DNA from: a bacterium
GTDB lineage: Bacteria > UBA8248
Assembly (NCBI GenBank): GCA_965219955.1
Contig: OZ244799.1
Location: forward strand, 4,128,001 to 4,192,000
Direction: 5' to 3'
Length of the DNA: 64,000 nt
Below the pieces are notes generated by a model, which saw nothing but the letters and a program-made list of their open reading frames with translations, was not told where the DNA came from and ran no database searches. A program made the translations under genes and the position numbers. Shown here piece after piece: positions 5,131 through 47,451 of this stretch. The first letter of the stretch is position 1. Each line of letters begins with the position of its first letter.

Positions 5131-6120
5131 CTACGCCAGAGAACCTCCGCAGGAGGAGCCGGCCCCCGCCGTGCAGCCGAAGCAATGATCGCCCAGCAGA
5201 ATTTCCCGGCCCAGCAGTTCGGCGGGTGCGACGTCCCAGAGTTTCAGGGGCGTCCCGTTACCGAGGGACATGTCGAGCATCTGGTTGAAGTCGCAATCAT
5301 ACAGGACGCCGTCCCATCCCACGCTGATGAGATTTCGGCACATCAGGTCGGGCAGCGTCCCGGGGTTGTAGGCTTCGCGCAAGGTGGTCATATAGGAATC
5401 CAGCTTGCCGCGCACCTTCAGGTAGCTGGCGAAGCGGGTGATGGGCATGTTGGTGATGGTGTAGAGATGGTGAAAGCGGATGCCGTAGCGCTTGAGGAGT
5501 TCGCGCTTGTAGTCCGCCTCGAGCGTTTCCTGGGGCGGCGGGAGATTATCGTCCACGGGGTTGTAGACGAGGTTCAAGGCCAGGTCTCCCGGAGGGCCGA
5601 ACCCCGCCTCGTTCAAATCGCGGAGCGCACGGATGGATTTTTCAAAGACGCCGTCTCCGCGCTGGGTGTTCACGTTTTCCTCGAGATAACAGGGCAGCGA
5701 GCAGATGAGCTCCACGCGGTTCTCGCGGTAGAAGTCGATCAGGTCCTCCTGGCCCGGCTCGTAGACGACCGTGAGGTTGCAGCGGACCATCACGTGGCGG
5801 TCCTTGCGGCGGGCTCTGGTGACGATGCGCCGGAAATGGGCGTTGAGTTCGGGCGCGCCTCCCGTGATGTCGACGTTGGGGATCTGCGTGTCCTCGAGCC
5901 ATTCGATAATGCGGCTCGCCGTCTCCCCGGTCATGATCTCCTTGCGATGCGGGCCCGCGCCCACGTGGCAGTGCGCGCATGTCTGGTTGCAGTATTTGCC
6001 CACGTTGATCTGCAGCGTGGAGAGTTCGGTGCGATCCAGGTGAGGAGCGTCCTCCCGGATGTGGTCCTGGAATTTTAATGCCCCGTTCGAGGACAGGGGC
6101 AGGGAAATGTGTGCGGGCAT
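5131..6120 (-). CDS. Radical SAM/Cys-rich protein, ArsS-like (DUF3641)
   Basis: LQINVGKYCNQTCAHCHV (CxxxCxxC), DITGGAPE, LYDCDFNQML and C-terminal HCFGCTAGAGSSCGG. Confidence 0.88.
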   Translation of the reverse strand: MPAHISLPLSSNGALKFQDHIREDAPHLDRTELSTLQINVGKYCNQTCAHCHVGAGPHRKEIMTGETASRIIEWLEDTQIPNVDITGGAPELNAHFRRIVTRARRKDRHVMVRCNLTVVYEPGQEDLIDFYRENRVELICSLPCYLEENVNTQRGDGVFEKSIRALRDLNEAGFGPPGDLALNLVYNPVDDNLPPPQETLEADYKRELLKRYGIRFHHLYTITNMPITRFASYLKVRGKLDSYMTTLREAYNPGTLPDLMCRNLISVGWDGVLYDCDFNQMLDMSLGNGTPLKLWDVAPAELLGREILLGDHCFGCTAGAGSSCGGSLA

Positions 6121-10475: not shown

Positions 10476-10667
10476 CGGCGGGGCCGGTCTCGATAACGGC
10501 GGGAGGGTTTGCGGTTTTCGTAGGGCTCGGACATATATGTCCGACTGTGTGTTCTCCCGTTTTACCGTGTTTTCGTCCGAGCGTTTGGGGCGATGGGGTG
10601 GACGCCTCCTTCCGGCGGATTAGAATGTGGCGAGACGACGTCACACACCGCCCGGAAGGAGACGACC

Positions 10668-11693
10668 ATGGGAGGAGTCTACATCATCGGGGTCGACTTG
10701 GCGAAACACAGTTTTCAACTCCACGGCGCGTGGGCGGACGGGCGGGTCGCGTTCCGCAAGAAGCTGACGCGGGCGAAGGTGCTGGAGTTTCTGTCGTCGC
10801 AGCCTCGATGCGTGGTGGCGATGGAGGCGTGCGCGAGCGCGCACTACTGGGGGCGCGAGGTCGGCAAGCTCGGCCATGAGGTTCGGCTCATGCCGCCGGT
10901 CTACGTGAAGCCCTACGTGAAGCGCCACAAGAACGACGCGGCGGATGCGGAGGCGATATGCGAGGCGGCCACCCGGGCGACGATGCGCTTCGTGGCGGTG
11001 AAGAGCGAAGCGCAGCAGGGGTGTGGGATGGAGTACCGCACGCGGGATTTGCTGGTGCATCAGCGCACGCAGGCGCGCAACGCGCTGCGCAGCCACCTGG
11101 CGGAGTTCGGGGTCGTCGAGCGGCAAGGGCCCGTGGGCCTCACACGGCTGGCGGCGGCGGTTCGGGGAGCGGAATCGGGCCTGCCCGAGGAGGTCCGGGA
11201 GCTGGGCGAAGTTCTGCTCGCCCAGATTGTCGGCCTCGATGCGAAGGTCCGGGAGTTGACCGGACGGCTCCGGGCGAGCGCATACGCGGACGAGGAGGCG
11301 CGGCGTCTGATGAGCATCCCGGGTGTTGGTCCGATTACGGCGTCGGCGATCCGGGCGTTCGCGCCGCCGGTGGAGAACTTCCGTCGGGGCCGTGACTTCT
11401 CGGCCTGGCTGGGTCTGGTTCCCCGGCAGCACTCCACGGGGGGCAAGCCCCGTCTGGGGGGCATGTCGAAGATGGGCCAGCGCGACGTGAGGCGTCTGTT
11501 GATATCGGGCGCGATGTCGGAGATACGCTGGGCGGGGCGTCGCCGGAAGCCGCCGTGTCCGTGGCTGGCGCGGATGCTGGCGCGCAAGCCGAGGAAGGTG
11601 GTGGCGGTGGCGCTGGCGAACCGGATGGCGCGCATCGCGTGGGCGCTGATGCGGAACAAGGATGTCTACAGGGAGCCGGCGCCCCTCGCCTGA
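10668..11693 (+). CDS. IS110 family transposase (DEDD recombinase)
   Basis: GVDLAK, AMEAC and KNDAAD (DEDD), SIPGVG, and WLGLVPRQHSTGG with the conserved Ser; GGAG RBS. Confidence 0.96.
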   Translation: MGGVYIIGVDLAKHSFQLHGAWADGRVAFRKKLTRAKVLEFLSSQPRCVVAMEACASAHYWGREVGKLGHEVRLMPPVYVKPYVKRHKNDAADAEAICEAATRATMRFVAVKSEAQQGCGMEYRTRDLLVHQRTQARNALRSHLAEFGVVERQGPVGLTRLAAAVRGAESGLPEEVRELGEVLLAQIVGLDAKVRELTGRLRASAYADEEARRLMSIPGVGPITASAIRAFAPPVENFRRGRDFSAWLGLVPRQHSTGGKPRLGGMSKMGQRDVRRLLISGAMSEIRWAGRRRKPPCPWLARMLARKPRKVVAVALANRMARIAWALMRNKDVYREPAPLA

Positions 11694-13565: not shown

Positions 13566-13742
13566 TGAATCGGGCAATCATACCGAGAACAAAGAATCGG
13601 CAAGAGCCGGTTTTTAGAGGTTTTCCCTGGAATTCGTCATCCACGAGGAGGATGTATGGATGTCGATTATAAAGAGGAAACGCTCATAAGGAATGCTCGG
13701 CAAGTCTATTTTTCCCCTCACTTCACTCAAGGAGAATATGCG

Positions 13743-14708
13743 ATGAAAAGGACAATGAAATTCATACTCGCTTCCGTCGTGGCGATTTCACTGGCGGGAG
13801 CGGCGGTCCCTGCGAGCGCCGCGAAATTTCTCGTGGTCGGCGGCGGCTCCACCACGGGCGTGTACTACCAGGTCGCTCTCAACGTCTGCAAGCTGGTGAA
13901 CAAGACGTTGAAAAGCAAGGGTTATAACTGCATCGGCCGTCCCGCGCTGGGTTCGGTGTTCAACATCAACGCCATCAAGCGCGGCCTCCTGAACTTCGGC
14001 GTCGCCCAGTCCGACAGGAACTTTCAGGCGTACAACGGCACGGCCGACTGGAAGGGCAAAGCCTTCAAGGGTCTCAGGAGCGTCTTCAGCGTTCATCCCG
14101 AAACCGTCATGCTCGTCGCTCGCGCGGATTCGGGCATCATGAAGGTATCGGACATCAAGGGGCGCCGGGTGAACATCGGCAACCCCGGCTCCGGCCAGCG
14201 CGGTAACGCGACGGACATCCTGAAAATCTACGGCATCGGCATGAAGGACATCAAGGCCGAGGGCCTGCAGCAGGGCGGGGCGAGCCGCGCGCTGGTGGAC
14301 AAGAAGATCGACGCGTTCTTCTACACCGTCGGCAACCCCTGGGGCGGCGGTCTCGAGATCTCCAACAGCACAGCGATCCGCATGATCCCCATCAACGCCA
14401 AGGGCATCATGGATCTGGTGTCCGGCAAGCCCTACTACGTGATGACGAACATCCCGGGCGGCATTTACAAGGGCGTCAATAAGGACGTGCCGACCTACGC
14501 GGTGAAGGCCACTTTCGTGACCGGCGCGAATCAGCCCAACGACGTGGTCTACAACGTCGTGAAGACCATCTTCGATAATCTCGACCAGTTCCGCGCCACG
14601 CACGCGGCGTTCAAGTACCTGACGAAGAAAGACATGCTCGGTGGTCTCTCGGCTCCCTTCCATCCGGGCGCCACGCGTTACTACAAGGAAAAAGGCTTGA
14701 TGAAGTAG
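13743..14708 (+). CDS. TAXI family TRAP transporter solute-binding protein
   Basis: Signal peptide; GSTTGVYY, GSVFNI, VAQSD, GNPGSGQ and PFHPGA motifs; AAGGAG RBS. Confidence 0.93.
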   Translation: MKRTMKFILASVVAISLAGAAVPASAAKFLVVGGGSTTGVYYQVALNVCKLVNKTLKSKGYNCIGRPALGSVFNINAIKRGLLNFGVAQSDRNFQAYNGTADWKGKAFKGLRSVFSVHPETVMLVARADSGIMKVSDIKGRRVNIGNPGSGQRGNATDILKIYGIGMKDIKAEGLQQGGASRALVDKKIDAFFYTVGNPWGGGLEISNSTAIRMIPINAKGIMDLVSGKPYYVMTNIPGGIYKGVNKDVPTYAVKATFVTGANQPNDVVYNVVKTIFDNLDQFRATHAAFKYLTKKDMLGGLSAPFHPGATRYYKEKGLMK

Positions 14709-14824: not shown

Positions 14825-17074
14825 ATGAGCGAGCCGGGTGATTCCGCTGACGTTTTGGGCGCAGGGATCGACGAAGAATCGAAGCGGGCGGCGGAGGAAA
14901 TCGCCGCCGAAGCGGAATCCGGCGGGCGGCAGCCCAAGAACCTCACGGCCTGGCTGGTCTCCGTCCTCGCGATCTCCTGGTCCTGTTTCCAGCTCTACAT
15001 CGCCTACACCCCCCTGAACTCCATCATCGCCAGAAGCATCCACCTCACCTTCGCCATCACGATGGTCTACCTGGCCTTCCCGGGGACGAAAAAGCCCGGC
15101 GAGACCTGGATTCAGCGCATGTCGCTCCAGCTTTTCCCCTACTTCATGCGGTCCCAGCGCTCCACGCGGGAGGTCATCCCCTGGTACGACTATGCGCTCG
15201 CGATCATAGCGGGGCTGGGCGCGTTCTACATGGCCTGGGACTACGCGAACATCATCCAGCGCTCGGGCCTCCCCATCCAGCGCGACGTCATCGTGGGGGC
15301 GATCCTCGTCGTTCTTCTTCTGGAAGCCGCGCGGCGCGCGCTCGGACCCGCGCTGCCGATCCTCGCCATCCTGTTCCTGCTCTATTGCTTCGTGGGTCCC
15401 TACATGCCCTCGTTCATCGCGCATCCGGGCGTTCCGCTCGAATTCGTCGTGGACCACATGTATCTGAGCGACAGCGGCATCTGGGGCGTGCCCATCGGGG
15501 TGTCGACGAGCTTCGTGTTCCTCTTCGTGCTGTTCGGCTCGCTGCTCGACAAGGCGGGCGCGGCGAACTACTTCGTGCAGGTGGCCTTCGCGGCGCTGGG
15601 CCGCTTCCGGGGCGGACCCGCCAAGGCGGCCGTGGTCGCCTCGGGTATGACGGGTCTCGTCTCGGGCTCATCCATCGCGAACGTGGCGACGACGGGAACC
15701 TTCACGATCCCGCTGATGAAAAAAGTGGGCCTGCCCGCCTACAAGGCGGGCGCCGTGGAAGTGGGCGCGAGCACGAACGGACAGCTCATGCCGCCGGTCA
15801 TGGGCGCCGCCGCGTTCATCATGGCGGAATTCCTGGGATTGGCGTATCTCGACGTGGTGCGCGCCGCCATACTGCCGGCCCTGCTGTCTTATATCGCCCT
15901 GTTCTACGTCGTTCATTTGGAAGCGCTCAAGCTGGACTTAAGACCGCTGAGGGAGGATGAACTGCCCTCGTTCTGGCACACGCTCATCAGCGGCATCCAC
16001 TACGTCGTTCCCATCCTGGCGCTCATCTACACGCTCGTCATCCTGCGCATGTCGGCCGTGGCGTCGGCGTTCAACGCGATCCTGCTGACGATGGCGATCA
16101 TCGTCGTCCAGCGTCCCATGCAGAACACCATCGCCGTCCTGGGCGGCATGAAGCGCGAGAAGGGCGTCGCCCATCTGCGGGAGTTGTTCGGCGAGGCGCA
16201 TTTCAAGGAACTCGAAGAGCGCCTGTGGGACGGGGTGCTCGCCGGTTTCGGCCAGAGCTTCGGCGACGTCTGGCAGGGGTTGATGGCCGGGGCCAAGAAC
16301 ATGATGGGCATCGGCGTCGCGACCGCGGCGGCGGGCATCATCGTGGGCACCGTCACGCTTACCGGCTTGAGCGGACGCTTCATCGAGCTTATCGAGATCG
16401 TCTCCCTGGGCAACGTGGTGCTCATGCTCCTGCTCACCGCGATCTGCTCCCTCATCCTGGGGATGGGGCTTCCCACGACGGCGAACTACATCGTCATGGC
16501 GACGCTCACCGCGCCCGTCATCGTGAGCCTGGGCGGCAAGGCGGGCCTCGTGGTGCCGCTGCTCGCGGCCCATCTGTTCGTCTTTTATTTCGGCATCCTG
16601 GCCGACGACACGCCGCCCGTGGGTCTGGCCGCGTTCGCCGCCTCGGCGATAGCCAAGTCCGACCCCATCCAGACGGGCGTGCAGGGCTTCGTCTACGACC
16701 TGCGGACCGCCGTGCTGCCGTTCGTCTTCATCTACAACCTGGAGCTCCTGATGATGCAGGGCGTCGGTCCCAAGGGCGAGATCATCTGGATCAACGATAT
16801 TCTCAAAATCGCCTGGGTGTGTTTCGTCTCTCTGGCGGCGATTTTCGCCTTCGCCTCCGCGCTTCAGGGCTATTTCGCCGATAACTGCAACTGGGGCGAG
16901 CGGGCGATCCTGATGGTGGTGTGCGTCTCGGCGTTCAGGCCCTCGCTCATAACGGATTTCACCGGCGGCCCGCGGCCCGTGGTGCAGCTCGTCGCGGTGG
17001 CGATTTTCGCCGCCTTGTACTGGTATCAGCACAGCAGGCGAAAAGGGCAAACGCCTCAGCCGGCGCCCGCCTGA
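14825..17074 (+). CDS. TRAP transporter 4TM/12TM fused permease
   Basis: [34 protein letters not shown] and [10 protein letters not shown] motifs. Confidence 0.94.
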
Positions 17075-17161: not shown

Positions 17162-17238
<77 letters not shown>

Positions 17239-17409: not shown

Positions 17410-18597
17410 GTGCAGAATCACTCTCTACCCCTGTCCCGTTTCAAGGTCCTGGATCTCACCCGCGCGCGGGCCGGCCCCACGGCGGTTCGCCAGTTCGCGG
17501 ACTGGGGGGCGGACGTCATCAAGATAGAGGCGCCGCCCACGAGCGGCTTTTCGGACAACATGGCCCAGCCCCGGAGCGGGTATGAGGCGCAGAACCTGCA
17601 CCGCAACAAGAGGGGCATGACCCTCAACCTGCGCGAGGAAAAGGGCCGCGAGATATTCTTCCGCATGGTGAAAGACGCCGACGTGGTGATCGAGAACTAC
17701 CGGCCCGACGTGAAGCACCGCCTGGGCGTGGATTACGAGGCCTGTCGCGCCGTGAACCCGCGCATCGTCTACGGGAGCATCTCCGGCTTCGGGCAGGAGG
17801 GACCCTACAGCAAGCGACCGGGGCTGGACATGACGGCCCAGGGGCTGAGCGGCCTCATGTCCGTCACCGGCAAGCCTGGCGAGGGGCCCATGCGTGTGGG
17901 CATTCCGCTCGCCGATCTGTCTGCCGGCTTCATGCTCGCGCAGGGGATTATGATCGCCCTGCTCGAGCGCGAAGTCTCGGGTGAGGGGCAATGGGTGCAC
18001 ACCTCGCTTCTCGAAGCCCAGATTCAGATGATGGACTTCCAGGCCGCGAGATACCTGCTTTTCGAGGACGTGCCCACCCAGCAGGGGAACAACCACCCCA
18101 CCTTTTTGCCGGCGGGCGTTTTCGAGACCGCGGACGGGCGGATCATCATCCAGTCCGGTCCCCAGCATCTCTGGGAGCGCCTCGTGAACGCGCTGGAATT
18201 GCCCGAGCTGCTCGAGAATCCCGATTACGGGAGCGTGCCGAAGCGCTTCGAGAACAAAGAGGCCCTGCACGAGACCATCACCCGCCGCACGCGGGCGAAG
18301 CCGGGTGCGGAGTGGATCGAGATACTGAACGAGGCGGGAATCCCCTGCGGGCCCATCTACACGGTGGACAAGACGTTCGCCGATCCCCAGGTGAAGGGGC
18401 TGAACATGTCGCCCGAGGTCGAGCACCCCGAGATGGGGCCGATAAAGATCGTGGGCCAGGCGGTCAAGCTCGCCCGCACGCCGCAGAAGATGCGCAACTC
18501 GACGCCCGAGGTGGGCGAGCATACGGAAGAGATTTTGAAGAATTTGGGCTACGATGCGGACGCGATAAGTCGATTGCGCGATGCGGGCATCGTCTAG
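17410..18597 (+). CDS. CaiB/BaiF family III CoA-transferase
   Basis: VLDLTRARAGP, GADVIKIE, HRNKR, ADVVIENYRP and SISGFGQEGPY motifs. Confidence 0.94.
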   Translation: MQNHSLPLSRFKVLDLTRARAGPTAVRQFADWGADVIKIEAPPTSGFSDNMAQPRSGYEAQNLHRNKRGMTLNLREEKGREIFFRMVKDADVVIENYRPDVKHRLGVDYEACRAVNPRIVYGSISGFGQEGPYSKRPGLDMTAQGLSGLMSVTGKPGEGPMRVGIPLADLSAGFMLAQGIMIALLEREVSGEGQWVHTSLLEAQIQMMDFQAARYLLFEDVPTQQGNNHPTFLPAGVFETADGRIIIQSGPQHLWERLVNALELPELLENPDYGSVPKRFENKEALHETITRRTRAKPGAEWIEILNEAGIPCGPIYTVDKTFADPQVKGLNMSPEVEHPEMGPIKIVGQAVKLARTPQKMRNSTPEVGEHTEEILKNLGYDADAISRLRDAGIV

Positions 18598-18627: not shown

Positions 18628-19434
18628 ATGGAGCATGGAATGCAGTTATCGACGGAGAAGATGGCTTTCGAGGTGGACGGCGGCATCGGCTGGATGATCT
18701 TCAACAACCCCGAGCGGAGGAACGCGCTCTCGCTCGAGATGTGGGGAGCCATCGCCGAGATACTCGAGAATTACGAGGCGGACGACGCGGTCCGCGTCGT
18801 GGTGATGAAGGGCGCAGGGGACAGGGCGTTCGTATCGGGCGCGGACATCTCGCAGTTCGCGAAGAACAGGAGCAACGCCGAGCAGGCCGCCGAGTACACC
18901 CGGATATCCGAAGAAGCCAAGCAGATCATGATGGGCATGAAAAAGCCCCTCATCGCCATGATCCGGGGCTACTGCCTGGGCGGCGGGCTGGGGATCGCGC
19001 TGAACGCCGACATCCGGATCGCGGCGGACGATTCGCAGTTCGGCATCCCCGCCGGGCGGCTGGGCATCGCCTACGGCTTCGACAACCTGAAGCAGCTCGT
19101 CGACCTCGTGGGACCCGCGAAGGCGAAGGAGATCCTCTTCACGGCCAGGCGCATCCCGGCGGCGAAAGCGCTCGAAATCGGACTGGTGAACGAAGTGGTG
19201 CCCGTGGATGAACTCGAAGACTTCGTGGTGGGCATGGCCTCCACCATCGCGAACAACGCACCGCTGTCGATCAAGGCGTCCAAGCTCACCATCGGCGAGG
19301 TGGTGAAAGACGGCGCCGATCGCGATTTCGACATGATCGCCCGCCTCTCGAAAGAATGCTTCGACAGCGCCGATTACAAAGAGGGCCGCACCGCGTTCAT
19401 GGAGAAGAGAAAACCCGTATTCACGGGCAGGTAG
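18628..19434 (+). CDS. Enoyl-CoA hydratase/isomerase (crotonase) family protein
   Basis: NNPERRNAL, AFVSGADISQF, GYCLGGG and DYKEGRTAFMEKRKPVF motifs. Confidence 0.93.
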   Translation: MEHGMQLSTEKMAFEVDGGIGWMIFNNPERRNALSLEMWGAIAEILENYEADDAVRVVVMKGAGDRAFVSGADISQFAKNRSNAEQAAEYTRISEEAKQIMMGMKKPLIAMIRGYCLGGGLGIALNADIRIAADDSQFGIPAGRLGIAYGFDNLKQLVDLVGPAKAKEILFTARRIPAAKALEIGLVNEVVPVDELEDFVVGMASTIANNAPLSIKASKLTIGEVVKDGADRDFDMIARLSKECFDSADYKEGRTAFMEKRKPVFTGR

Positions 19435-19453
19435 CGCGGGCCGCGAGAATCCG

Positions 19454-20059
19454 ATGAATGACGAGACATTCGCCGAGGTCATCTCTCCCGCCGGCATCCC
19501 CAGGATACCGGATGAGGCCTTGAAGCCCAGACCCGACACGCTGGAGGGCGCTACTCTCGGGATTTTGGAGAACAACAAGGAATTCTCCGACTGGGTGCTG
19601 GACAGGGTGCTTGAGAGGCTTCGAGAGTCGGTCGGCGTCAGGGAAGTCGTCCAGCGCAGGAAGCATCACCTCGCCCAACCGGCATCCCCTGAAATTCTCG
19701 AGGAGTTGAACGCGCGCTGCGACGCCGTGTTGGTCGGCGTCGGGCACTGAGGCTCATCCACCTCGTGGAGTGTCCGCGACGCGGTCCGGCTCGAGCGGCT
19801 GGGAAGCCCCGCCTGCGTCATCGTGAGCCGGGGCTTCAGCCACAGCGGCCGCGCGATAGCGAGGAGGCAGGGCTACGGCGGACTGCCCGTCGTCGAGATG
19901 GACCATCCCCTGGCCGCTCCCGAAAGGGAAGCGCTTCATCCCAAGGCGGACGCCATCGTGAATGAGGTCGTCCACGCGCTCACGGGCGACGCGGGGGAGC
20001 TCCGGGCCGAGTATGCCGAGAAGAAGTTCCGGGGTCCTCGGAATCTCTGCCCGAAATAG
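19454..20059 (+). CDS. UGSC-family selenoprotein (in-frame TGA 19748-19750 read as Sec99)
   Basis: ORFs 19454-19750 and 19823-20059 share one frame; read-through gives CDAVLVGVGH-U-GSSTSWSVRDAVRLERLGSP; selB is present in the window. Confidence 0.82.
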
Positions 20060-20071
20060 GGGAGGCGGAGC

Positions 20072-21145
20072 TTGGCCGGTAACGTCGAAAACCCCTCTCT
20101 GGAGGCGGGCAGGCGGGTTTTGTCGGTCACGGGCTCGCTCGATGAGGTGAACGCCTGTTTCTATGAGCGCGGCTGGACGGACGGGCTGCCCATCGTCCCG
20201 CCCACGCGCGGGCGCGTGGAGAGCATGCTCACCGGCTGGCCGGGGGAGCCGGATGAGGAGATCGCGGAGGTTCCTCCCCTGATGGGGGTGGCGACGGTCC
20301 GCGCGGTTGCGGTGAACGCCGTGATGGCCGGCTGCTTGCCCGAATACCTGCCCGTCGTCGTAGCGGCCGTCTCCGCAATCACGAAGCCGCGCTATGGCCT
20401 CAGCCACCGCCAGACGACGACCCACCCCGCCACCGCGCTCATCATCGTGAACGGCCCTATGGCCAAGCGCCTTAAAGTGAACTCCGGCTCCGGCCTTTTC
20501 GGCCCCGGCTGGCGAGCGAACGCGACGATAGGCCGCGCGCTCAGGCTTTGCCTCATCAACCTGGGGGGCGCCGCGCCCGGCGAGGTGGACCGCGCCCAGC
20601 ACGCGCATCCGGGGAAATACACCTACTGCATCGCAGAGAACGAGGACGCGAACCCCTGGGAGCCTTATCACGTCGAGCGCGGCTTTCAGCCTGGGGAGAG
20701 CACGGTGACGCTCACCTGCGGGGAGGCGCCGCACTGCATCACGGACAACTACAACACCGAGCCCCACGCGCTGCTCTTCGGCTACGCGGACTCGATGGCG
20801 ACGCTGGGCGGGAACAATCTCTCCTCCCAGGGAGAACCCGCCCTCGTCATGGCGCCCGAGCACGCCGCCTACGTCGCGCGGGCGGGCTGGAGCAAGGCGG
20901 ACGTGAAGCGCTATCTGTTCGAGAAGGCGAGGAAACCCTGGAAGCACGTGGGCGTCCGGGGAAAATCGAAAGGCCCAACCTTTCCCGTCTGGGTGGACAG
21001 GACGGACCCCGAAGCCTCCGTGCCCATCCTCACCCACGCCGACGCCCTCATCCTCATCGTCGGGGGCGGCGAGGGCCAGAAATCCATGTGGATACCCACC
21101 CCCGGCGCGCAGACGCTCAGCGTCACCGAGAAGATCAGGGAGTAG
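20072..21145 (+). CDS. Conserved protein of the family commonly found next to UGSC genes
   Basis: GWTDGLPIVPPT, AVNAVMAGC, IIVNGP, RANATIGRA and AENEDANPW motifs; GGAGG RBS. Confidence 0.8.
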   Translation: MAGNVENPSLEAGRRVLSVTGSLDEVNACFYERGWTDGLPIVPPTRGRVESMLTGWPGEPDEEIAEVPPLMGVATVRAVAVNAVMAGCLPEYLPVVVAAVSAITKPRYGLSHRQTTTHPATALIIVNGPMAKRLKVNSGSGLFGPGWRANATIGRALRLCLINLGGAAPGEVDRAQHAHPGKYTYCIAENEDANPWEPYHVERGFQPGESTVTLTCGEAPHCITDNYNTEPHALLFGYADSMATLGGNNLSSQGEPALVMAPEHAAYVARAGWSKADVKRYLFEKARKPWKHVGVRGKSKGPTFPVWVDRTDPEASVPILTHADALILIVGGGEGQKSMWIPTPGAQTLSVTEKIRE

Positions 21146-21257: not shown

Positions 21258-21551
21258 ATGTTGATCGAGGTTCGTCAAACCGATCAATATGCCCGATGGT
21301 TCGAGAAACTTCGGGATAAGCGGGCGAAGGCGCGCATCAACGCTCGCATCAGACGTTTGTCGTTGGGCAATCCCGGAGATGTACGGGCGGTCGGACAAGG
21401 GGTTTCGGAACTTCGGATCGACTACGGACCCGGCTATCGCATTTACTATGTACAGCAAGGGCAATCATTGGTGGTCCTGCTGGCCGGAGGAGATAAAAGC
21501 ACTCAGGCTCGGGATATCTTTAGAGCGCGGAATCTGGCACTAGAGTTATAG
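21258..21551 (+). CDS. RelE/ParE superfamily toxin (addiction module killer, HI1419-like)
   Basis: GNPGD, GVSELRIDYGPGYRIY and LLAGGDKSTQ motifs. Confidence 0.93.
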   Translation: MLIEVRQTDQYARWFEKLRDKRAKARINARIRRLSLGNPGDVRAVGQGVSELRIDYGPGYRIYYVQQGQSLVVLLAGGDKSTQARDIFRARNLALEL

Positions 21552-21557
21552 GAGTTC

Positions 21558-21845
21558 GTGATGGCGAAGACGAAAACCAGACCGTGGGACGCGGCGGATC
21601 ACCTCAAGACGAAAGAGGATATCGCCCTCTACCTCGAAGCGGCTTTCGAGGACGGCGACCCGGCGCTCATCGCGGCGGCGTTGGGGGACGCCGCGCGGGC
21701 CAGGGGGATGACGAAGGTCGCCGCCGAGACCGGCCTGGGCAGGGAGAGCCTCTACAAGGCGCTCTCGCCCGGGGGAAATCCCGGGTTCGCCACCGTTCTC
21801 AAGGTCATGCGCGCCCTGGGCCTTCGGCTTCGCCCATCTGCTTGA
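21558..21845 (+). CDS. HTH antitoxin (addiction module antidote, HI1420-like)
   Basis: WDAADHL, ARARGMT and RESLYKALSPGGNPGF motifs. Confidence 0.93.
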   Translation: MMAKTKTRPWDAADHLKTKEDIALYLEAAFEDGDPALIAAALGDAARARGMTKVAAETGLGRESLYKALSPGGNPGFATVLKVMRALGLRLRPSA

Positions 21846-40419: not shown

Positions 40420-41010
40420 GTCGTTGGAAAAGCCTTTGCCAAAGGAGCAACCCCCCCTGCCCCCCTTGTCGGAGTTGTTGAAAAACCCTGAGGAGAGAGG
40501 AATCACTCCCCCCTTGAGGGTCGGCCTTTCCTCCTCGGGAAGGCCGACGAAGAGCTAAGGGCATAAGCCCGCAAGCGAATCGGTGAGGGGGATAATTCGG
40601 AATGGCGATAAAACGCGATTCACCCCCCACCGCATCAGCCTTCGCAAAAATCGCTCGGCTTCACTGACTCCCCCTCCAGGGGCTGTTGAAAAAGTCCGAT
40701 AAAGGAGGAAGGGCGGTTGTAGGGACAACCCTCCGTGGTTGTCCTTTGCGGGATGGTTGCCGTCAGGACAGGCACGGAGGCCTGTCCCTACAAAACCCCC
40801 GTATGCGACACCCGCAAACCGCCAACGCCTTTTTCCTCACCCTGAGTAGCCGCCGAAGGTAAAACGCGACTGAGAAAGGAGCGTTTGTATCGAAGGGCGG
40901 AGGCTCGCGCCGTGGCGAGAGCAAACGCTCATTCATCAATCACGTTTGACCTTCGATGCGCGGCTCCGCCGCTACTCAGGATGAGGCGGATAGGCTTTTT
41001 CAACAATCCC
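40420..41010. repeat. Mosaic REP/MITE-like repeat cluster
   Basis: CACTCCCCCTTGAGGG unit, GCTGTTGAAAAA..TTTTTCAACAA brackets, GTAG pair and family B pair. Confidence 0.85.
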
Positions 41011-41102
41011 GAGCGCGCTCACGATTCACCGGGGGTATGATATGTTGTGGGCGGAAGCCCGCACGCATTCTCGGCGATGAAATATGCGAGAGGACTCAGC
41101 GC

Positions 41103-42719
41103 TTGAAATACGATGTCGATACGCTTCGCGGGGACCTGTTCGGCGGCGTCACCGCCATGGTGGTGGCCCTGCCGCTTTCGCTGGCCTACGGCGTGGCGGC
41201 GGGCATGGGCGCGGCGGCGGGCCTGTACGGCGCGATAGCGGTGGGCTTTTTCACGGCGGTATTCGGCGGCACGCCGACCCAGATATCCGGCCCCACCGCG
41301 CCGATGACCGTCGTCATGGCGGTCATCATCACCACGTACGCGGAAAATCTCACCGAAGCCTTGACGATAGTCGTTCTGGGCGGCCTGATGCAGGTGCTTC
41401 TGGGCGTGTTGAAGTTCGGCCGCTTCGTGGCCTACACGCCCTACCTGGTCGTTTCGGGCTTCCTGTCGGGAATTGGTATCATCATCATAGCGATTCAGGT
41501 GTTGCCCTTTTTGGGATCCGACCCCGTGCCCGGCGGGGCCGTGGGCATGATTCTCGCGCTACCCGAGGCGCTGGCAGAAGCCAACTCGAGCGCTTTCGGG
41601 GTGGGCGCCGTCACGCTCGGCGCCGTGGTCTTCTGGCCGGCCCGGTTCAGGAAAATCCTCCCCACGCCACTCGTGGGGCTTTTCGCCGGAACGATCGTGG
41701 GCGTCTTGTGGCTGGGTGATGCGCCCGTCCTCGGGAAGATTCCGAGCGGGTTGCCGGGACTGCAACTGGGGCTGCCTTCTCTGGCCTTGCTGGCGCGCGC
41801 GGTGGAGCCCGCGCTCATTTTCGCCCTGGTCGGCTCGGTGGTCAGCCTCCTCACCAGCCTCGTGGCTGATTCGCTGACCCGCACGAGCCACGATCCGGAC
41901 CGCGAACTCATCGGCCAGGGCGTGGGCAACGCGGCCGCGGGCCTCATCGGCGGTCTGCCCGGTTGCGGGACGCCCGTATACACGGTGATCAACATACGCG
42001 CCGGCGGGCGGACCCGGGCGGCGGGTGTGATATTCGCGCTCCTCCTGCTGACGACCCTGCTGGGCCTCGGGCCGTTCGTCGAGTCGGTTCCGTTCGCCGC
42101 CCTCTCGGGCGTTCTGATGAAGGTGGGCTGGGACCTCATCGACTGGCGTCTGCTCTGCCATCTTCACCGCATCCGGCGCGAACATCTCTTCATTATGTTG
42201 ACGACGCTCGGCCTCACGGTGTTTGTCGACCTGATCAGCGCCGTGGCGATAGGCCTTATCGTGTCGGGCCTGGCCCACGCGGGGCAGTTCGAAAGATTCG
42301 AACTCGACAGCGTGGTCTCCGTGCCCCTGCTGGACCGGATGTTCCTCTACCGGGGAGAGAAAGTGGAGGGAGTCGACCCGTTCGAGGCGCGCGTCGGCAT
42401 GGTGGCGCTCCGGGGGAGCTTCACCGTCGCGTCGTCCAAGAAGCTGGTGCGGACGATTAGTCTCGACATCAAGGATCACGAGGTCGTCATCTTTAATTTC
42501 ACGGAAGCCACCTACATCGACGACAGCGCCGCCATGGTCATCAAGCAGCTCATCGACGTCGCCGCTGAAGAAGACACCGAGTCCATCATCCTCGGGCTTT
42601 CGGGCGACGTGAAGCACACTCTTGAAACGCTCAATATCCTGTGGAGCGTGCCGGAGGGGCGTATCGTCGAAACACTGGGCGAGGCGCGAGAGACGGCGAG
42701 AACTCTCCTGAGAGATTGA
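41103..42719 (+). CDS. SulP/SLC26 family anion transporter with STAS domain (copy 1)
   Basis: GDLFGG, GLYGA, QISGPT, RELIGQG motifs; STAS segment IDDSA. Confidence 0.92.
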   Translation: MKYDVDTLRGDLFGGVTAMVVALPLSLAYGVAAGMGAAAGLYGAIAVGFFTAVFGGTPTQISGPTAPMTVVMAVIITTYAENLTEALTIVVLGGLMQVLLGVLKFGRFVAYTPYLVVSGFLSGIGIIIIAIQVLPFLGSDPVPGGAVGMILALPEALAEANSSAFGVGAVTLGAVVFWPARFRKILPTPLVGLFAGTIVGVLWLGDAPVLGKIPSGLPGLQLGLPSLALLARAVEPALIFALVGSVVSLLTSLVADSLTRTSHDPDRELIGQGVGNAAAGLIGGLPGCGTPVYTVINIRAGGRTRAAGVIFALLLLTTLLGLGPFVESVPFAALSGVLMKVGWDLIDWRLLCHLHRIRREHLFIMLTTLGLTVFVDLISAVAIGLIVSGLAHAGQFERFELDSVVSVPLLDRMFLYRGEKVEGVDPFEARVGMVALRGSFTVASSKKLVRTISLDIKDHEVVIFNFTEATYIDDSAAMVIKQLIDVAAEEDTESIILGLSGDVKHTLETLNILWSVPEGRIVETLGEARETARTLLRD

Positions 42720-42898
42720 GGCGGGAGGCGTTGTCGTCCTCCGAGGGATTCATTCCGGCGGCGCGGGTGTTTTCACGTCCGCCGTCACTGCTCTTTCCGG
42801 CGCGCGCCCACGATTCATCGAGGGTGTGATATGCTGTCTAAGAACATGCGATCATCACGACCATCGCCCGGAGACGAAGCGCGAAGGGGCATAATCGC

Positions 42899-44521
42899 GT
42901 GAAATTGAAATACGATTTCGATACGCTTCGCGGAGACCTTTTCGGCGGCGTCACCGCCATGGTGGTGGCCCTGCCGCTTTCGCTGGCCTACGGCGTGGCG
43001 TCGGGCATGGGGGCCGCGGCGGGACTCTACGGCGCGATAGCGGTGGGATTTTTCGCGGCCGTCTTCGGCGGCACGGCGACCCAGATATCCGGCCCCACCG
43101 CGCCGATGGCCATCGTGATGGCGGTCATCATCACCACGTATGCGAAAGACCTCACCGAAGCCCTGACGGTGGTCGTGATGGGCGGTCTCCTGCAAGTCCT
43201 CCTTGGCGTCTTGAAGCTCGGCCGTTTCGTGGCCTACACGCCCTACGTGGTCGTATCGGGCTTCATGTCCGGCATCGGCGTCCTCGTGATGGCGATTCAG
43301 GTGCTGCCCTTTTTCGGCTCGGACCCCGTGCCGGGCGGCGCCGTGGGCATGATTCTCGCGCTGCCCGAGACGCTGGCCAAGATCAACTGGAGCGCTTTGG
43401 GCGTCGGGCTCGTCACGCTCGGCGTCGCGGTCTTCTGGCCGTCGAGGTTCCGGAAAATCCTGCCCACGCCCCTCGTGGGGCTGATCGCCGGCACGCTCAT
43501 CGGCGTCTTGTGGCTCCATGATGCGCCCGTCATCGGGGAGGTGCCGACCGGCCTGCCGGGGCTCAAGATAGGGCTCCCGTCGCTCGGCTTTCTGGCGCGC
43601 GCCGTGGAGCCCGCGCTCATTCTCGCCCTCATCGGTTCGGTGGTGAGCCTCCTCACCTGCCTCGTGGCCGACTCGCTCACCCGTACGAGCCACGACCCGG
43701 ACCGCGAGCTCATCGGCCAGGGCGTGGGCAACGCGGCCGCGGGCCTGATCGGCGGACTGCCCGGTGCGGGCACACCCGTGTATACCGTGCCCAACATCCG
43801 CTCCGGCGGGCGGACCCGGGCGGCGGGGGCGATATTCGCGGTGTTTCTGCTGGCGATCCTGCTGGGTCTGGGACCCTACGTCGAGTCGATTCCGCTCGCC
43901 GCACTGGCGGGCGTCCTGATCAAGGTCGGCTGGGACATCATCGACTGGCGGCTCCTCACCCGCCTGCACCGCATCAAGCGCGAGCACCTCTTCGTCCTGC
44001 TGACGACGCTCTGCCTCACGGTGTTCGTCGATCTCATCAGCGCCGTGGCGATAGGCCTCATCGTCGCAGGTCTGGCCCACGCGGGACAGCTCGAGAACCT
44101 GGAGCTCGACAGCGTGGTCTCCGTGCCCCTGCTGGACCAGATGTTCCTCTACGAGGGGGAAGAGGTGGAAGGGGTCGACCCGTTCGAGGCGCGCGTCGGC
44201 ATGGTGGCGCTCCGGGGGAGCTTCACCGTCGCGTCGTCCAAGAAACTGGTGCGGACGATAAGCCTCGACATCAAGGATCACGAGGTCGTCATCTTCAATT
44301 TCACCGAAGCCACCTACATCGACGACAGCGCCGCCATGGTCATCAAGCAACTCATCGAAGTCGCCACCGAGGAAGACACCGAGTCCATCGTCATCGGCCT
44401 TACGGGCGACGTCGCCGAGACGCTCGACGCGCTCGACGTCCTGCGCGAGGTGCCGCCCGAGCGGGTCGTCGAAGACCTGGACGAGGCGCGCGAGATCGCG
44501 AAGCCCCTCGTGGGGGCCTGA
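42899..44521 (+). CDS. SulP/SLC26 family anion transporter with STAS domain (copy 2)
   Basis: Same motifs; close paralog of copy 1. Confidence 0.93.
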   Translation: MKLKYDFDTLRGDLFGGVTAMVVALPLSLAYGVASGMGAAAGLYGAIAVGFFAAVFGGTATQISGPTAPMAIVMAVIITTYAKDLTEALTVVVMGGLLQVLLGVLKLGRFVAYTPYVVVSGFMSGIGVLVMAIQVLPFFGSDPVPGGAVGMILALPETLAKINWSALGVGLVTLGVAVFWPSRFRKILPTPLVGLIAGTLIGVLWLHDAPVIGEVPTGLPGLKIGLPSLGFLARAVEPALILALIGSVVSLLTCLVADSLTRTSHDPDRELIGQGVGNAAAGLIGGLPGAGTPVYTVPNIRSGGRTRAAGAIFAVFLLAILLGLGPYVESIPLAALAGVLIKVGWDIIDWRLLTRLHRIKREHLFVLLTTLCLTVFVDLISAVAIGLIVAGLAHAGQLENLELDSVVSVPLLDQMFLYEGEEVEGVDPFEARVGMVALRGSFTVASSKKLVRTISLDIKDHEVVIFNFTEATYIDDSAAMVIKQLIEVATEEDTESIVIGLTGDVAETLDALDVLREVPPERVVEDLDEAREIAKPLVGA

Positions 44522-44561
44522 GGCGGGGGATGTATTTCGAGACGGCGGAGGGCTTCCACCC

Positions 44562-46178
44562 GTGAACTACGATCTCCGGACGCTTCGCGGCGACGTCTCC
44601 GGCGGCCTCACCGCTACGGTGGTCGCGCTTCCATTCGCGCTTTCTTTCGGCGTGGCCTCCGGCCTGGGGGCTGCGGCGGGGCTTTACGGCGCGATAGCGG
44701 TGGGTTTTTTCGCGGCGCTATTCGGCGGTACGCGGACGGTTATTTCAGGCCCTGCGCCTTCCATGACGGTCGCCATGGCGGTCATCGTCACCACCCACGC
44801 GGCGAATCTCGCAGAAGCCCTGAGCATCGTCGTGCTGGGCGGCCTGCTGCAAGTGCTTCTGGGCGCGCTGGGGGCCGGGCGCTTCGTGGTCTACACGCCC
44901 TATGTGGTCGTCTCGGGCTTCATGTCCGGCATCGGCGTCATCATCATGATGATCGAGGTGCTGCCCTTTCTCGGCGCGCCGCCTGCGCCCGGCGGATTCA
45001 TGGGCGCGATTCGCGCGCTGCCCGAGGCGATGAGCGGGCTCAACGCAGACGCCCTGGGCGTCGGCGCCGCCACGCTCGCCGCCTTCGCCTTCTGGCCGCG
45101 CCGCTACGCGAGGATTCTGCCTCCTCCCCTGATGGCGCTTCTCGTCGGGTCGCTTCTGGGCGTCTTGTGGCTTCATGAGGCGCCCGCCATCGGGCGGATT
45201 CCGGCGGGCCTGCCGGGGCTGCAACTGGGACTGCCCTCCGCCGGCTTCCTGCTGGGCGCCCTCCAGCCGGCGATCGTTCTCGCCCTGCTGGGCTCCATCG
45301 ACAGCCTCCTCGCCGCCCTGGTGGCCGACTCGCTGACCGGCTCGCGCCACAACCCGAACCGCGAGCTGGTGGGGCAGGGGATCGGCAACGTAGCCGCGGG
45401 CCTCATCGGCGGACTGCCCGGCGCGGGGGCCACCGTGAGCACGGTGACGAACATCCGCGCGGGGGGGCAGACCCCGGTCTCGGGCGTACTGCGCGCCGTG
45501 TTGCTGCTGGCGCTCCTGCTGGGTTTCGGGCCATACGTCGAGTCGGTTCCGCTCGCCGCCCTCGCGGGCGTGCTGATGAAGGTGGGCTGGGACATCGTCG
45601 ACTGGCGGCTCCTCGCGCGGTTCCGCCACATCCGGCGCGAGCACCTCTTCGTCATGCTGATGACGCTCGGCCTCACGGTGTTCGTCGACCTGCTGACCGC
45701 CGTGGCGATAGGCCTCATCGCCGCCGGGATGGCCCACGCGCGGCACCTCGAGCGCCTCGAGATCGACAACGTGGTCTCCGTGCCGATGCTGGACCACATA
45801 TTCCTTGGTGAACTTCAGGACGCGGCCTCGGTGAACCCCTACACGGCGCGCGTCGGCCTGGTGTCGCTCCGGGGGAGCTTCACCGTCGCCTCATCGCACG
45901 AGCTGGTCGCGGCCATCAGCGCGGACATCAAGGACCACGAGGTCGTCATCTTCGATTTCTCGAGTGCGACCCATCTCGACGACAGCGCCGCCATGCTCAT
46001 CAGGCGGCTCATGGACGTCGCCGCGCAGGAGCGCACCGCGTTCATCGTGATGGGCCTGGCGGGCGACGCCGCGCGCACCCTCCGCGCGTTCGACGTTCTG
46101 CGCGACGCGCCCGGGGAGCGGGTCGTCGAGACCCTGGAGGAGGCGCGGGAGTGCGCGAAGAAGATCCTGGGCGTGTAG
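44562..46178 (+). CDS. SulP/SLC26 family anion transporter with STAS domain (copy 3, most BicA-like)
   Basis: LGSIDSLL, NRELVGQG and PGAGAT motifs; GTG start. Confidence 0.93.
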   Translation: MNYDLRTLRGDVSGGLTATVVALPFALSFGVASGLGAAAGLYGAIAVGFFAALFGGTRTVISGPAPSMTVAMAVIVTTHAANLAEALSIVVLGGLLQVLLGALGAGRFVVYTPYVVVSGFMSGIGVIIMMIEVLPFLGAPPAPGGFMGAIRALPEAMSGLNADALGVGAATLAAFAFWPRRYARILPPPLMALLVGSLLGVLWLHEAPAIGRIPAGLPGLQLGLPSAGFLLGALQPAIVLALLGSIDSLLAALVADSLTGSRHNPNRELVGQGIGNVAAGLIGGLPGAGATVSTVTNIRAGGQTPVSGVLRAVLLLALLLGFGPYVESVPLAALAGVLMKVGWDIVDWRLLARFRHIRREHLFVMLMTLGLTVFVDLLTAVAIGLIAAGMAHARHLERLEIDNVVSVPMLDHIFLGELQDAASVNPYTARVGLVSLRGSFTVASSHELVAAISADIKDHEVVIFDFSSATHLDDSAAMLIRRLMDVAAQERTAFIVMGLAGDAARTLRAFDVLRDAPGERVVETLEEARECAKKILGV

Positions 46179-46839: not shown

Positions 46840-47451
46840 TTAGGGGTGGGGGTTTCTTACAAGTTCATTAAATTGAAGTCTTGTTTTCCCATGCGTTTTG
46901 ATTCTCAACTTATTTTCGGGGGTGTTGTGTAAAACAGATTTAGGTGGTATTCGCGTCGGCGTTTTGCCCATACTTGTTTTGATATCTGTAATGCAGACAA
47001 AGCATTGTTGATAGTTCTTCTCTTCCAGAAATTTTGGCTCTTGCCAGAATTCCCGACCTATAGCGCGGCAATAGGCGACGAGACACTGCGCTCCTTTTAA
47101 TTGTTGTACAATTTCTTTATTATTTAAATTACCGCCTGCGCTACTTTTCATCTCAATATGAAGAATCCAGTTTTTGTTGCCAGCCTGAGCGACAACAATA
47201 TAATCGGCCCGTTTTCGTTCTCCTTTGTTACCCATGAAGAAATTATTTGGAGATGGGAACTTATCGGCTTTGATTATTACGATTTCATCTGGAATTTTTG
47301 TTATCTTAAGCGAATAATTATTCTTCGTAGTGTTTCTAGGTTCTTCGAGTGTAACTTCTGCCTTGCCATAAGGATTCTTCCCAGGGAGCACGGTAGCTTC
47401 TTTTTTTATCAATGCTCGCAGGATATCCAAGTCGTACTTATTACTCATCAT
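46840..47451 (-). CDS. Hypothetical protein with PD-(D/E)xK nuclease-like motif
   Basis: RADYIVV..ILHIEMKS..QQLKG; AT-rich; overlaps the ATPase stop codon. Confidence 0.6.
   Translation of the reverse strand: MMSNKYDLDILRALIKKEATVLPGKNPYGKAEVTLEEPRNTTKNNYSLKITKIPDEIVIIKADKFPSPNNFFMGNKGERKRADYIVVAQAGNKNWILHIEMKSSAGGNLNNKEIVQQLKGAQCLVAYCRAIGREFWQEPKFLEEKNYQQCFVCITDIKTSMGKTPTRIPPKSVLHNTPENKLRIKTHGKTRLQFNELVRNPHP

Follow-up and report, generated by a model that had tools for sequence, protein, structure and literature searches.

The UGSC family (Pfam PF24696, NCBIfam NF041046) takes its name from a motif with selenocysteine (Sec, U) or cysteine in the first position and cysteine in the fourth, and the accessible text of four sources that deal with it gives no function (PMC2398784, PMC13188914, PMC1976440, PMC9312934); a 2026 review, in its accessible part, lists the family as uncharacterised (PMC13188914). 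The available description of the Global Ocean Sampling selenoproteome includes an entry 'UGSC/Unknown_1', a UGSC domain fused to a conserved domain of unknown function (PMC2398784), and Sec motifs without a nearby cysteine appear there and in the accessible part of the review for other families, for example a UxxS arsenate reductase and UxxT and UxxG proteins (PMC2398784, PMC13188914). Here we describe a UGSC-family gene at positions 19454–20059 (forward strand) of a 64,000-nucleotide stretch of the bacterial contig OZ244799.1 (the whole stretch being hereafter called the window), in which the second cysteine of the motif is replaced by serine. The gene had been pointed out by an original prediction made from the letters of the DNA. 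We compare it with its relatives and consider the adjacent, highly conserved gene (hereafter the partner), with which it may well constitute a two-subunit enzyme.

The UGSC-family gene and its in-frame TGA

The frame running from the ATG at 19454 to a TAG ending at 20059 on the forward strand comprises 201 codons plus the stop and contains a single in-frame TGA, codon 99 (19748–19750), in the context LVGVGH-U-GSSTSW. Genetic code table 11 splits it into two open reading frames (ORFs) in the same frame, 19454–19750 (98 aa) and 19823–20059 (78 aa). The original prediction held that the TGA joins these into one protein of 201 aa, and the family match, the base composition and the conservation beyond the TGA all bear this out. 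With the TGA translated as Sec, the Pfam UGSC model matches residues 9–177 at 159.4 bits (cut-off 25), occupying model positions 2–171 of 172, and our own UGSC profile hidden Markov model (HMM), applied with read-through, reaches 229.1 bits over 19451–20017; both matches cross codon 99. GC content at third codon positions is 0.80 on the 5′ side of the TGA and 0.83 on the 3′ side. The NCBIfam equivalog NF041046, 'UGSC family (seleno)protein', scores 123.3 bits and does not reach its cut-off of 125, so the gene is indeed hidden, as had been claimed. Genome-wide reassignment of TGA is ruled out, as the codon is the ordinary stop of 14 of the 38 family-supported genes in the window and the organism therefore has no general reading of TGA as an amino acid. 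A crude filter for further read-through genes in the 64 kb yielded the UGSC gene alone.

Relatives were collected by a full HMMER scan of 1.84 billion representative sequences, which returned 1059 at E ≤ 0.001; a word-based protein search with the window protein returned two, both truncated. The representative alignment consists of the best 150 of the 1059, the query and the first two hits, with 145 rows having a residue at the site. Column 99 is Cys or Sec in 135 of these 145 rows including the query (Cys in 134 of the 144 others). Four short relatives (P0002, P0003, P0010 and P0027) stop exactly at GVGH, as would be expected from a gene caller that ends the protein at a Sec codon. For the DNA level, 78 loci from GTDB species genomes were anchored on the downstream partner, the UGSC alignments being too variable to serve as an anchor; any adjacency statistic from these loci is therefore that of UGSC given the partner, not the reverse. 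Six-frame pieces of the loci, with TGA read through, were searched with the UGSC HMM, and 72 domain hits were found in 58 of the 78 loci. Among the 69 copies covering the Sec column, 63 have TGA, four TGC and two another codon, and the TGA of column 99 is the sole one inside nearly all hits. Homologues thus have Cys or Sec at position 99, as the original prediction required, and the genomes of the Cys type encode one uninterrupted protein, so that the two halves are not separate proteins there.

The TGA is followed, 13–31 nt downstream, by a bacterial selenocysteine insertion sequence (SECIS) hairpin at 19761–19781 (forward strand), with a stem of 7 bp, one of them a U-G pair (19763–19769 with 19773–19779), a loop GUG (19770–19772) and an outer C-G pair (19761/19781). 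The stem folds at −8.7 kcal/mol (z −2.59 for the isolated hairpin). When the 55 nt after the TGA were folded in every copy, the same hairpin was found in most TGA-type relatives, its stem at positions 16–22 and 26–32 from the U of UGA and its loop G-U-N at 23–25; it is largely absent from three of the four TGC copies. In the ungapped alignment of 62 TGA copies, 81.2% of the stem cells can pair, as against 71.2% after shuffling, and the covariation score is 0.261, a value reached by none of 500 shuffles, against 0.121 for shuffled sequences, although these counts ignore kinship and coding constraints and the structure was derived from the same sequences, which takes some weight from them. Sliding the 3′ partner strand by one to three columns lowers the covariation score to 0.027–0.111, and the pair 21–27 is C-G in 28 of the 62 sequences and G-C in another 28. 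A covariance model built from 61 relatives, with the window excluded, finds one match in the window, at 19748–19795 (56.4 bits, E 2.5e-14), the next best scoring 14 bits. The available text of PMC13188914 gives as constraints on bacterial SECIS elements a loop of 3–9 nt with G in its two leading positions, an upper stem of 4–16 bp, 16–37 nt from UGA to loop and an energy of at most −7.5 kcal/mol; the window hairpin conforms to these, with a 3-nt loop GUG, a 7-bp stem, a distance of 19 nt and −8.7 kcal/mol. An Rfam search of the UGSC region gave no family match, and whole-sequence folding z-scores around the TGA are not significant in this GC-rich DNA (+1.05, +0.27 and +0.93).

Two other hairpins had originally been named as SECIS candidates. 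Both exist as inverted repeats, TCCAC/GTGGA at 19757–19769 (−4.1 kcal/mol, with no G at the start of the loop) and CCGC/GCGG at 19774–19784 (−3.7 kcal/mol), and both are weak; the conserved hairpin is that at 19763–19779, between them. The nearest TGA-type relatives (L002:4668-4715, L003:4506-4553 and L004:4650-4697) are without the family hairpin, having one shifted by 5–7 nt downstream with a loop CGUGA at 28–32 from UGA (−11.5 kcal/mol in L003), and the SECIS has apparently been remodelled within this branch, as far as the aligned copies tell.

The gene of the Sec-specific elongation factor, selB, had been reported from the window, and it is there, though as a 3′ part cut by the window end (63293–64000, reverse strand; SelB-wing_3 75.2 bits, SelB-wing_2 53.2 bits, TIGR00475 model positions 405–580 of 581). 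Directly downstream of selB on the same strand lies a class V aminotransferase gene of the SufS/cysteine desulfurase/selenocysteine lyase kind (62082–63269, reverse strand), with scores of 177 bits to TIGR01977, 174 to SufS and 118 to SclA, each below cut-off; its product could supply selenium or sulfur.

These data bear on the alternative that the TGA is a true stop, leaving either a pseudogene or a 98-aa fragment with perhaps a separate C-terminal piece. Table 11 does yield two ORFs, gene callers predict such fragments in P0002, P0005, P0010, P0011 and P0027, and no tRNA-Sec was found in the window, nor were selA and selD among the ORFs scanned, though all three may lie outside it; this last absence tells against read-through. 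A stop is nevertheless very improbable given TGA at the same column in 63 of 69 copies from many phyla, full conservation 3′ of it, a conserved SECIS with covariation, selB in the window and a codon-position GC unaltered behind the TGA. We therefore regard 19454–20059 as almost certainly a single UGSC-family selenoprotein gene, one whose predicted product falls into a subfamily with the motif H-[U/C]-G-[S/A]-S.

The branch without the second cysteine

The window motif is GVGH-U-G-S-S, with Ser102 (TCC, 19757–19759, forward strand) where the family normally has its second cysteine (TGC) and with His98 before the Sec; translation and alignment agree with the original prediction that the fourth motif position is Ser and not Cys. 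This position is Cys in 120 of the 145 representative rows (motif C-x-x-C) and Ser in 13 (C-x-x-S). In the DNA alignment, column 11 is G in at least 90% of the 62 sequences and C in the window and in L002–L004. The residue preceding the Sec or Cys is His in the clade to which the window protein belongs and Asp in 88% of canonical rows. That clade comprises seven rows of a 205-row tree (the window, P0009, P0006, L002, L003, P0025 and P0078), has 98% support and is entirely without the second cysteine; we refer to it as the UxxS clade. A 79-row maximum-likelihood tree computed without the motif columns retains it at a value of 93.4 (below the mark of 95) in the Shimodaira–Hasegawa-like approximate likelihood ratio test. 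A separate clade with C-F-G-D-C-G-T-S and some single rows of the 205-row tree likewise have no second cysteine, the starred branches forcing at least three changes of the Ser label.

The original prediction called the U-G-S-S site non-canonical, and this has to be qualified, since the site characterises an extensive clade and is no one-off. Starting from P0006, a clade member of the Cys type, a search gave 384 clusters at E ≤ 1e-10, so that the clade comprises at least that many Cys-type protein clusters, and among the 120 matches listed, 119 have GVGHCGSS and one GVGHCGSA; wherever the source gives a name it is 'hypothetical protein'. On NF041046 all seven clade members stay below the cut-off of 125 (window 123.3, the other six 59.4–111.8), as do P0053 (116.1) and P0026 (109.1), and five of five canonical members pass (125.7–148.1). 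Since the branch lies under NCBI's threshold for naming, proteins of the Sec type appear as fragments and those of the Cys type go by 'hypothetical protein'. The term 'UGSS' together with 'selenoprotein' does not occur in the searchable literature. As judged from alignment and trees, G-V-G-H-[U/C]-G-[S/A]-S is a distinct and widespread subfamily that is without the second cysteine, having lost it, and in which His stands in place of Asp.

Could Ser102 instead stem from a mistake in sequencing or assembly, with TCC given for TGC, or from a mutation newly arisen in an otherwise canonical UGSC gene? The two codons are one base apart, the surrounding DNA is like that of canonical copies such as L056, and the database proteins of the closest relatives (more than 60% identity) end at the TGA, before codon 102. 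Yet the window protein groups with the Cys-less proteins even after removal of the motif columns, it has the His98 of the clade, its partner falls among those of UxxS copies with 100% support, and the entire clade scores under the NCBIfam cut-off, so that we give an error or recent mutation hardly any credence.

The partner gene and a predicted interface

The partner gene (20072–21145, forward strand; 357 aa) follows after 12 bases (20060–20071) with GGGAGG at 20060–20065 ahead of its TTG start, a start that agrees with 357-aa proteins of 92–97% identity. Its product matches no Pfam or NCBIfam family, and none of 54 relatives matches any family convincingly; the family is nevertheless very large, with at least 7990 relatives (7990 of 8000 scored candidates at E ≤ 1e-5), and highly conserved: in a set of 12 sequences whose identity goes down to 59%, columns are 75% identical on average and long motifs are invariant. 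All that an Atlas search with the partner returned were clusters bearing no name and fusions that include UGSC. The partner shares 56% identity with the last 330 residues of one 556-aa fusion, P0014, whose N-terminal UGSC domain has the motif GVGH-C-GAS.

The two genes keep close company. UGSC stands beside the partner in 58 of the 78 loci, always on the partner's strand, and nearly all hits lie within a few hundred bases of it, 32 upstream and 32 downstream. Fusions exist in both orders, one of them Sec-containing (L004), and some loci have two or three pairs in tandem. In a tree of the partner, the window and L001–L004 form a group with 100% support, four of whose five members are paired with U-x-x-S proteins, the fifth (L001) being cut at its edge; the partner tree thus mirrors the UxxS grouping, and both genes are co-diversifying. 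Adjacency, fusions and the structural models below make it rather likely that UGSC and partner are a physical pair.

Two contigs of one groundwater Chloroflexi metagenome-assembled genome (L056:2326-6628 and L069:2093-6767) carry three UGSC-partner pairs each, in tandem, with Gln at the Sec column of one L069 copy; the same genome also supplies L020 and L038, so the pair is multi-copy in some genomes. Plasmids of Vibrio europaeus (L083:3368-5053, 561 aa) and Sporomusa termitida (L081:4323-6047, 574 aa) encode fused UGSC-like and partner domains that score 34–40 bits with our UGSC HMM and adjoin an aconitase X and a DUF126 gene.

The AlphaFold2 (AF2) model of the UGSC protein, from 102 sequences, has a predicted local distance difference test score (pLDDT) of 95.3 and a predicted template modelling score (pTM) of 0.89, and consists of five beta-alpha units. 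Sec99 lies directly after strand 91–97, at the start of helix 3 (100–116). The C-terminal tail is modelled with lower confidence, residues 190–201 being the least confident. The best matches of the model in the Protein Data Bank (PDB) are flavodoxin-like domains (the flavodiiron core and AzoR/AcpD), with template modelling (TM) scores up to 0.48, and the models thus support a flavodoxin-like alpha/beta fold, not a thioredoxin one. A thioredoxin-fold C/U-x-x-C oxidoreductase was considered and rejected, the model being flavodoxin-like and the motif U-x-x-S; the 'likely Trx-like fold' assigned to UGSC in the accessible text of PMC2398784 is not supported by the AF2 model here. The partner model is likewise confident (pLDDT 91.2, pTM 0.91), and its sole PDB matches are weak ones to class I fumarate hydratases, including a two-subunit archaeal one (Foldseek E 8.7e-4, probability 0.63, TM 0.25–0.30, root-mean-square deviation ~20 Å). 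Sequence-profile searches of the PDB gave E-values of 0.31 and 0.68 only for UGSC and no match for the partner.

The complex was modelled on the natural fusion P0014, folded as two chains (residues 1–200 and 205–556). Its score of 0.67 compares with 0.00 for the best of three controls; among solved complexes 116 of 157 attain this mark, and among mismatched pairs 2 of 215 (counts that apply only approximately, our own alignment having been used). Between runs, 77% or more of the contacts coincide, and the partner pLDDT is at least 88. The confident interface comprises, on the UGSC side, C91 (corresponding to Sec99), the next motif residues, a conserved N-terminal stretch and F128, and on the partner side (P0004 numbering) P43–R46, P69–A74, V81, N82, M85, H112, R113, T115–H118, N163–G166, G170–V172 and R174. 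The models thus support a Sec or Cys located where the two proteins meet and facing the invariant HRQTTTH and N-x-G-G motifs of the partner, in what would be a composite active site.

The original prediction had further supposed that, with the resolving cysteine lost, the selenol acts alone or is resolved by another cysteine, such as one in the C-terminal LCPK or in the partner protein. The part assigned to the partner fits the interface model. The tail cysteine (codon 199, TGC, 20048–20050, forward strand, in tail blocks with pLDDT 75 and 69) does not qualify as a general replacement. It would have to swing onto Sec99 to form a selenenylsulfide, which the uncertain and possibly mobile tail 190–201 could allow; it is kept as VCPR in P0011, the closest relative with a visible C-terminus, and G194, P195 and L198 of the tail have their counterparts in the interface of the folded fusion. 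It is, however, absent from the UxxS-clade copies L002, L003, P0006, P0009 and P0025, and of the 12 among 37 long-tailed standalone representatives that have it, nine keep the full CGSC. Being missing from the other readable clade members and occurring mostly alongside an intact CGSC, it is therefore an independent feature and not a compensation. Replacement by Cys199 is thus quite improbable, and the idea would fit the window protein and its nearest relative only.

Proposed function and comparison with known systems

Directly upstream of the pair and on the same (forward) strand, the window has, in order, a TRAP (tripartite ATP-independent periplasmic) transporter of the TRAP-associated extracytoplasmic immunogenic (TAXI) type, namely a solute-binding subunit (13656–14708, TIGR02122 310.9 bits) and a fused permease (14825–17074, TIGR02123 651.7 bits), then tRNA-Pro (TGG, 17162–17238), a family III CoA-transferase (17410–18597, Pfam CoA_transf_3 386 bits, also matched by NCBIfam) and an enoyl-CoA hydratase (18628–19434, Pfam ECH_1 194 bits, likewise matched by NCBIfam); the tRNA gene stands between the permease and CoA-transferase genes, inside an apparently single gene row. 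The scan for promoters and terminators gave nothing usable. CoA-transferase and enoyl-CoA hydratase families recur near the UGSC-partner pair elsewhere: the recurrent neighbours in the 78 loci are CoA-transferase III (8), short-chain dehydrogenases (7), TctC receptors (6) and others at lower counts, in a clustering polluted by antisense shadow ORFs, its second-largest cluster being the partner's own antisense strand. Ten annotated plasmid loci were compared as well. The partner is a 'hypothetical protein' in nine of them, the match in the tenth (Acidovorax) being without annotation; trxB adjoins the pair in three (Variovorax, Roseovarius and Arthrobacter, the last also with trxA), three loci have a different flavin/NAD(P) oxidoreductase next to the pair, four have a CoA transferase in the neighbourhood and five have TRAP/TTT transporter genes there. 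A Halalkalicoccus plasmid repeats the set seen in the window (TAXI subunit, fused permease, CoA transferase, UGSC and partner). In translated searches (tblastn) with the TrxB proteins of these plasmids, homologues were found in the fetched flanks of three of the 78 genome loci (L030, L052 and L071). DUF6282 genes stand directly beside the pair on haloarchaeal plasmids and in three genome loci (L082:5036-5869, L087:5053-5904, L088:1-650 and L030:1061-1921), and in certain lineages their product may belong to the system as an additional part.

The explanation that we consider best overall, and hold to be reasonably probable, is that the UGSC selenoprotein and its partner form a two-subunit, selenol-dependent oxidoreductase. 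UGA codon 99 would be decoded as Sec with the help of the 19763–19779 hairpin, and the UGSC subunit would dock onto the 357-aa partner, so that the Sec would lie at their contact surface, within the composite active site of a two-subunit selenol- or thiol-dependent oxidoreductase. The substrate might be a small organic acid or its CoA ester; the TRAP transporter would import it, and the CoA-transferase and enoyl-CoA hydratase encoded in this row of genes would process it. Among the canonical proteins U-x-x-C would cycle through an internal selenenylsulfide reduced by the thioredoxin system; in the UxxS subfamily a lone selenol would serve as single nucleophile, its oxidised form being resolved by an outside thiol, either partner Cys88 or Cys186 or thioredoxin. 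A thioredoxin-linked selenol redox role in organic-acid or CoA-ester catabolism is, as read from the gene neighbourhoods, a plausible though tentative part of this picture. That UGSC supplies the smaller, flavodoxin-like part, be it subunit or domain, of a two-part enzyme not described before, whose large subunit would come from the conserved partner family with neither a Pfam or NCBIfam model nor a convincing structural relative, with the HUGSS branch as the mechanistically distinct single-selenol version of the enzyme in organic-acid or CoA-ester catabolism, is a possibility that we regard with more doubt than confidence.

Several observations weigh against an oxidoreductase of this kind. 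The folded P0014 is only 36% and 56% identical to the two proteins of the window, and contact between domains that share a single chain is less telling than the binding of separate proteins. The confident contacts of that fold include neither Cys88 nor Cys186 of the partner, and these two are kept in 96–100% and 76–100% of copies, respectively, regardless of the UGSC motif, so that no partner cysteine, Cys88 and Cys186 included, is specific to the UxxS clade. Twenty of the 78 partner loci have no UGSC in their flanks (about six of them at contig ends). No trxB homologue was found by tblastn in the 64-kb window or in L002–L004, and most loci are without one. In the Vibrio and Sporomusa plasmid fusions the Sec/Cys column is occupied by Met (GD-M-GTS), so a domain of this kind can do without a redox residue at that place; this branch seems to have given it up, to go by its sequences. 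Finally, the literature that names the UGSC family lists it, in the parts available, without experiment.

A different view of the pair would make it a non-redox hydro-lyase or isomerase for organic acids, in which Sec99 together with partner Cys88 and Cys186 binds a metal or an Fe-S cluster or acts as acid or base, the loss of Cys102 leaving one metal position free; the layout recalls the two-subunit or fused class I fumarate hydratases. These are, as said, the sole PDB matches of the confident partner model, the sizes are similar (~200 aa plus ~350 aa, or fusions of 530–570 aa), and the partner has exactly two conserved cysteines. Neighbouring genes fit as well, since enoyl-CoA hydratase, aconitase X with DUF126, enolase, CoA ester lyase and members of the isocitrate lyase/phosphoenolpyruvate mutase and adenylosuccinate lyase families occur among them. 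The fold match is, however, weak by every measure given above, none of the 54 members of the partner alignment matches fumarase or another Pfam family, neither Cys88 nor Cys186 is in confident contact with the Sec or Cys, and the flavodoxin-like fold is unlike the beta subunit of fumarate hydratase; the trxB/trxA linkage and the near-universal use of Sec fit redox chemistry better. A hydro-lyase or isomerase is thus unlikely, and we retain the two-subunit oxidoreductase as the favoured reading.

Several other features of the window deserve mention. At 5131–6120 (reverse strand) an ORF matches ArsS, the 'arsenosugar biosynthesis radical SAM (seleno)protein' (TIGR04167, 437.7 bits against a cut-off of 300, full length); no TGA interrupts its frame over the entire model, and it has Cys in its C-terminal ...GSSCGGS... 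tail, at a position where, presumably, other genomes carry Sec, and it would then be a Cys version in a Sec-using organism. Right after the partner lies a gene for a toxin of the RelE/ParE family (21258–21551, forward strand; TIGR02683 134 bits, Pfam Gp49), and the 95-aa ORF behind it (21558–21845) could be the antitoxin. About 2 kb upstream of the row of transporter and UGSC genes is an IS110-family transposase gene (10593–11693, forward strand; Transposase_20, DEDD_Tnp_IS110). Three genes for anion transporters of the BicA/SulP type stand in a row at 40956–46178 (forward strand; 587, 540 and 538 aa), scoring 456–489 bits with the BicA model, below its cut-off of 880. A 473-aa ATPase encoded at 47441–48862 (reverse strand) has weak matches, far below the cut-offs, to the retron Eco8 effector (39 bits) and a PtuA-type defence ATPase (23 bits), and may be a defence gene.

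On the more doubtful reading, that of a part of an undescribed enzyme, UGSC would not work alone as a thioredoxin-like protein; among environmental selenoprotein families of unknown function it is one of the most abundant. The window offers a concrete, testable picture of the family: a fixed partner, a predicted shared active site, a link to trxB in some genomes and an organic-acid or CoA-ester setting. Cys-type pairs occur in cultured Roseovarius, Variovorax, Arthrobacter and haloarchaea, and genetics and biochemistry are therefore feasible.

How the locus relates to described systems can now be stated. With class I fumarate hydratases, whose 4Fe-4S cluster has three cysteine ligands, it shares the weak structural match of the partner, the division into a small and a large subunit or a fused chain and the organic-acid context; it differs in the low TM score of 0.25–0.30, in having no sequence-family match and in a partner with two conserved cysteines. 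Glycine reductase and D-proline reductase are multi-subunit enzymes with Sec in a U/C-x-x-C-type motif that receive electrons from thioredoxin reductase and thioredoxin, and the presence of trxB, once with trxA, beside the UGSC-partner pair in some genomes is a point of likeness. Membership in the glycine or proline reductase families was considered and rejected, one of 102 UGSC proteins hitting Gly_reductase at chance level (E 0.068) and none of 54 partner proteins doing so. Arsenate reductase of the UxxS type and the families with UxxT or UxxG resemble the window protein in the motif alone, and no relation of sequence or fold is claimed.

The entry 'UGSC/Unknown_1' comes closer. The partner is 56% identical to the non-UGSC part of the 556-aa fusion P0014, and we infer that the Unknown_1 domain of PMC2398784 is the partner family; the window differs in having separate genes, 12 bases apart. 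Closest of all is the UGSC family itself (PF24696, NF041046). The window protein shares with it the whole-domain Pfam match, the Sec at the Sec/Cys column and the neighbour gene, and with most members also the SECIS hairpin. It differs in Ser at the fourth position, His for Asp and a score under the NCBIfam cut-off, its branch (H-[U/C]-G-S-S) breaking the very motif that gives the family its name. The UGSC family, the Sec in UGSC and a fusion partner were thus already in print. What the present comparison adds is the U-G-S-S branch, with its size and with scores that miss the annotation cut-off; a SECIS shared across the family; a regular pairing, and joint diversification, with a protein family that has no model; the predicted non-thioredoxin fold with the Sec at the modelled interface; and the link to trxB.

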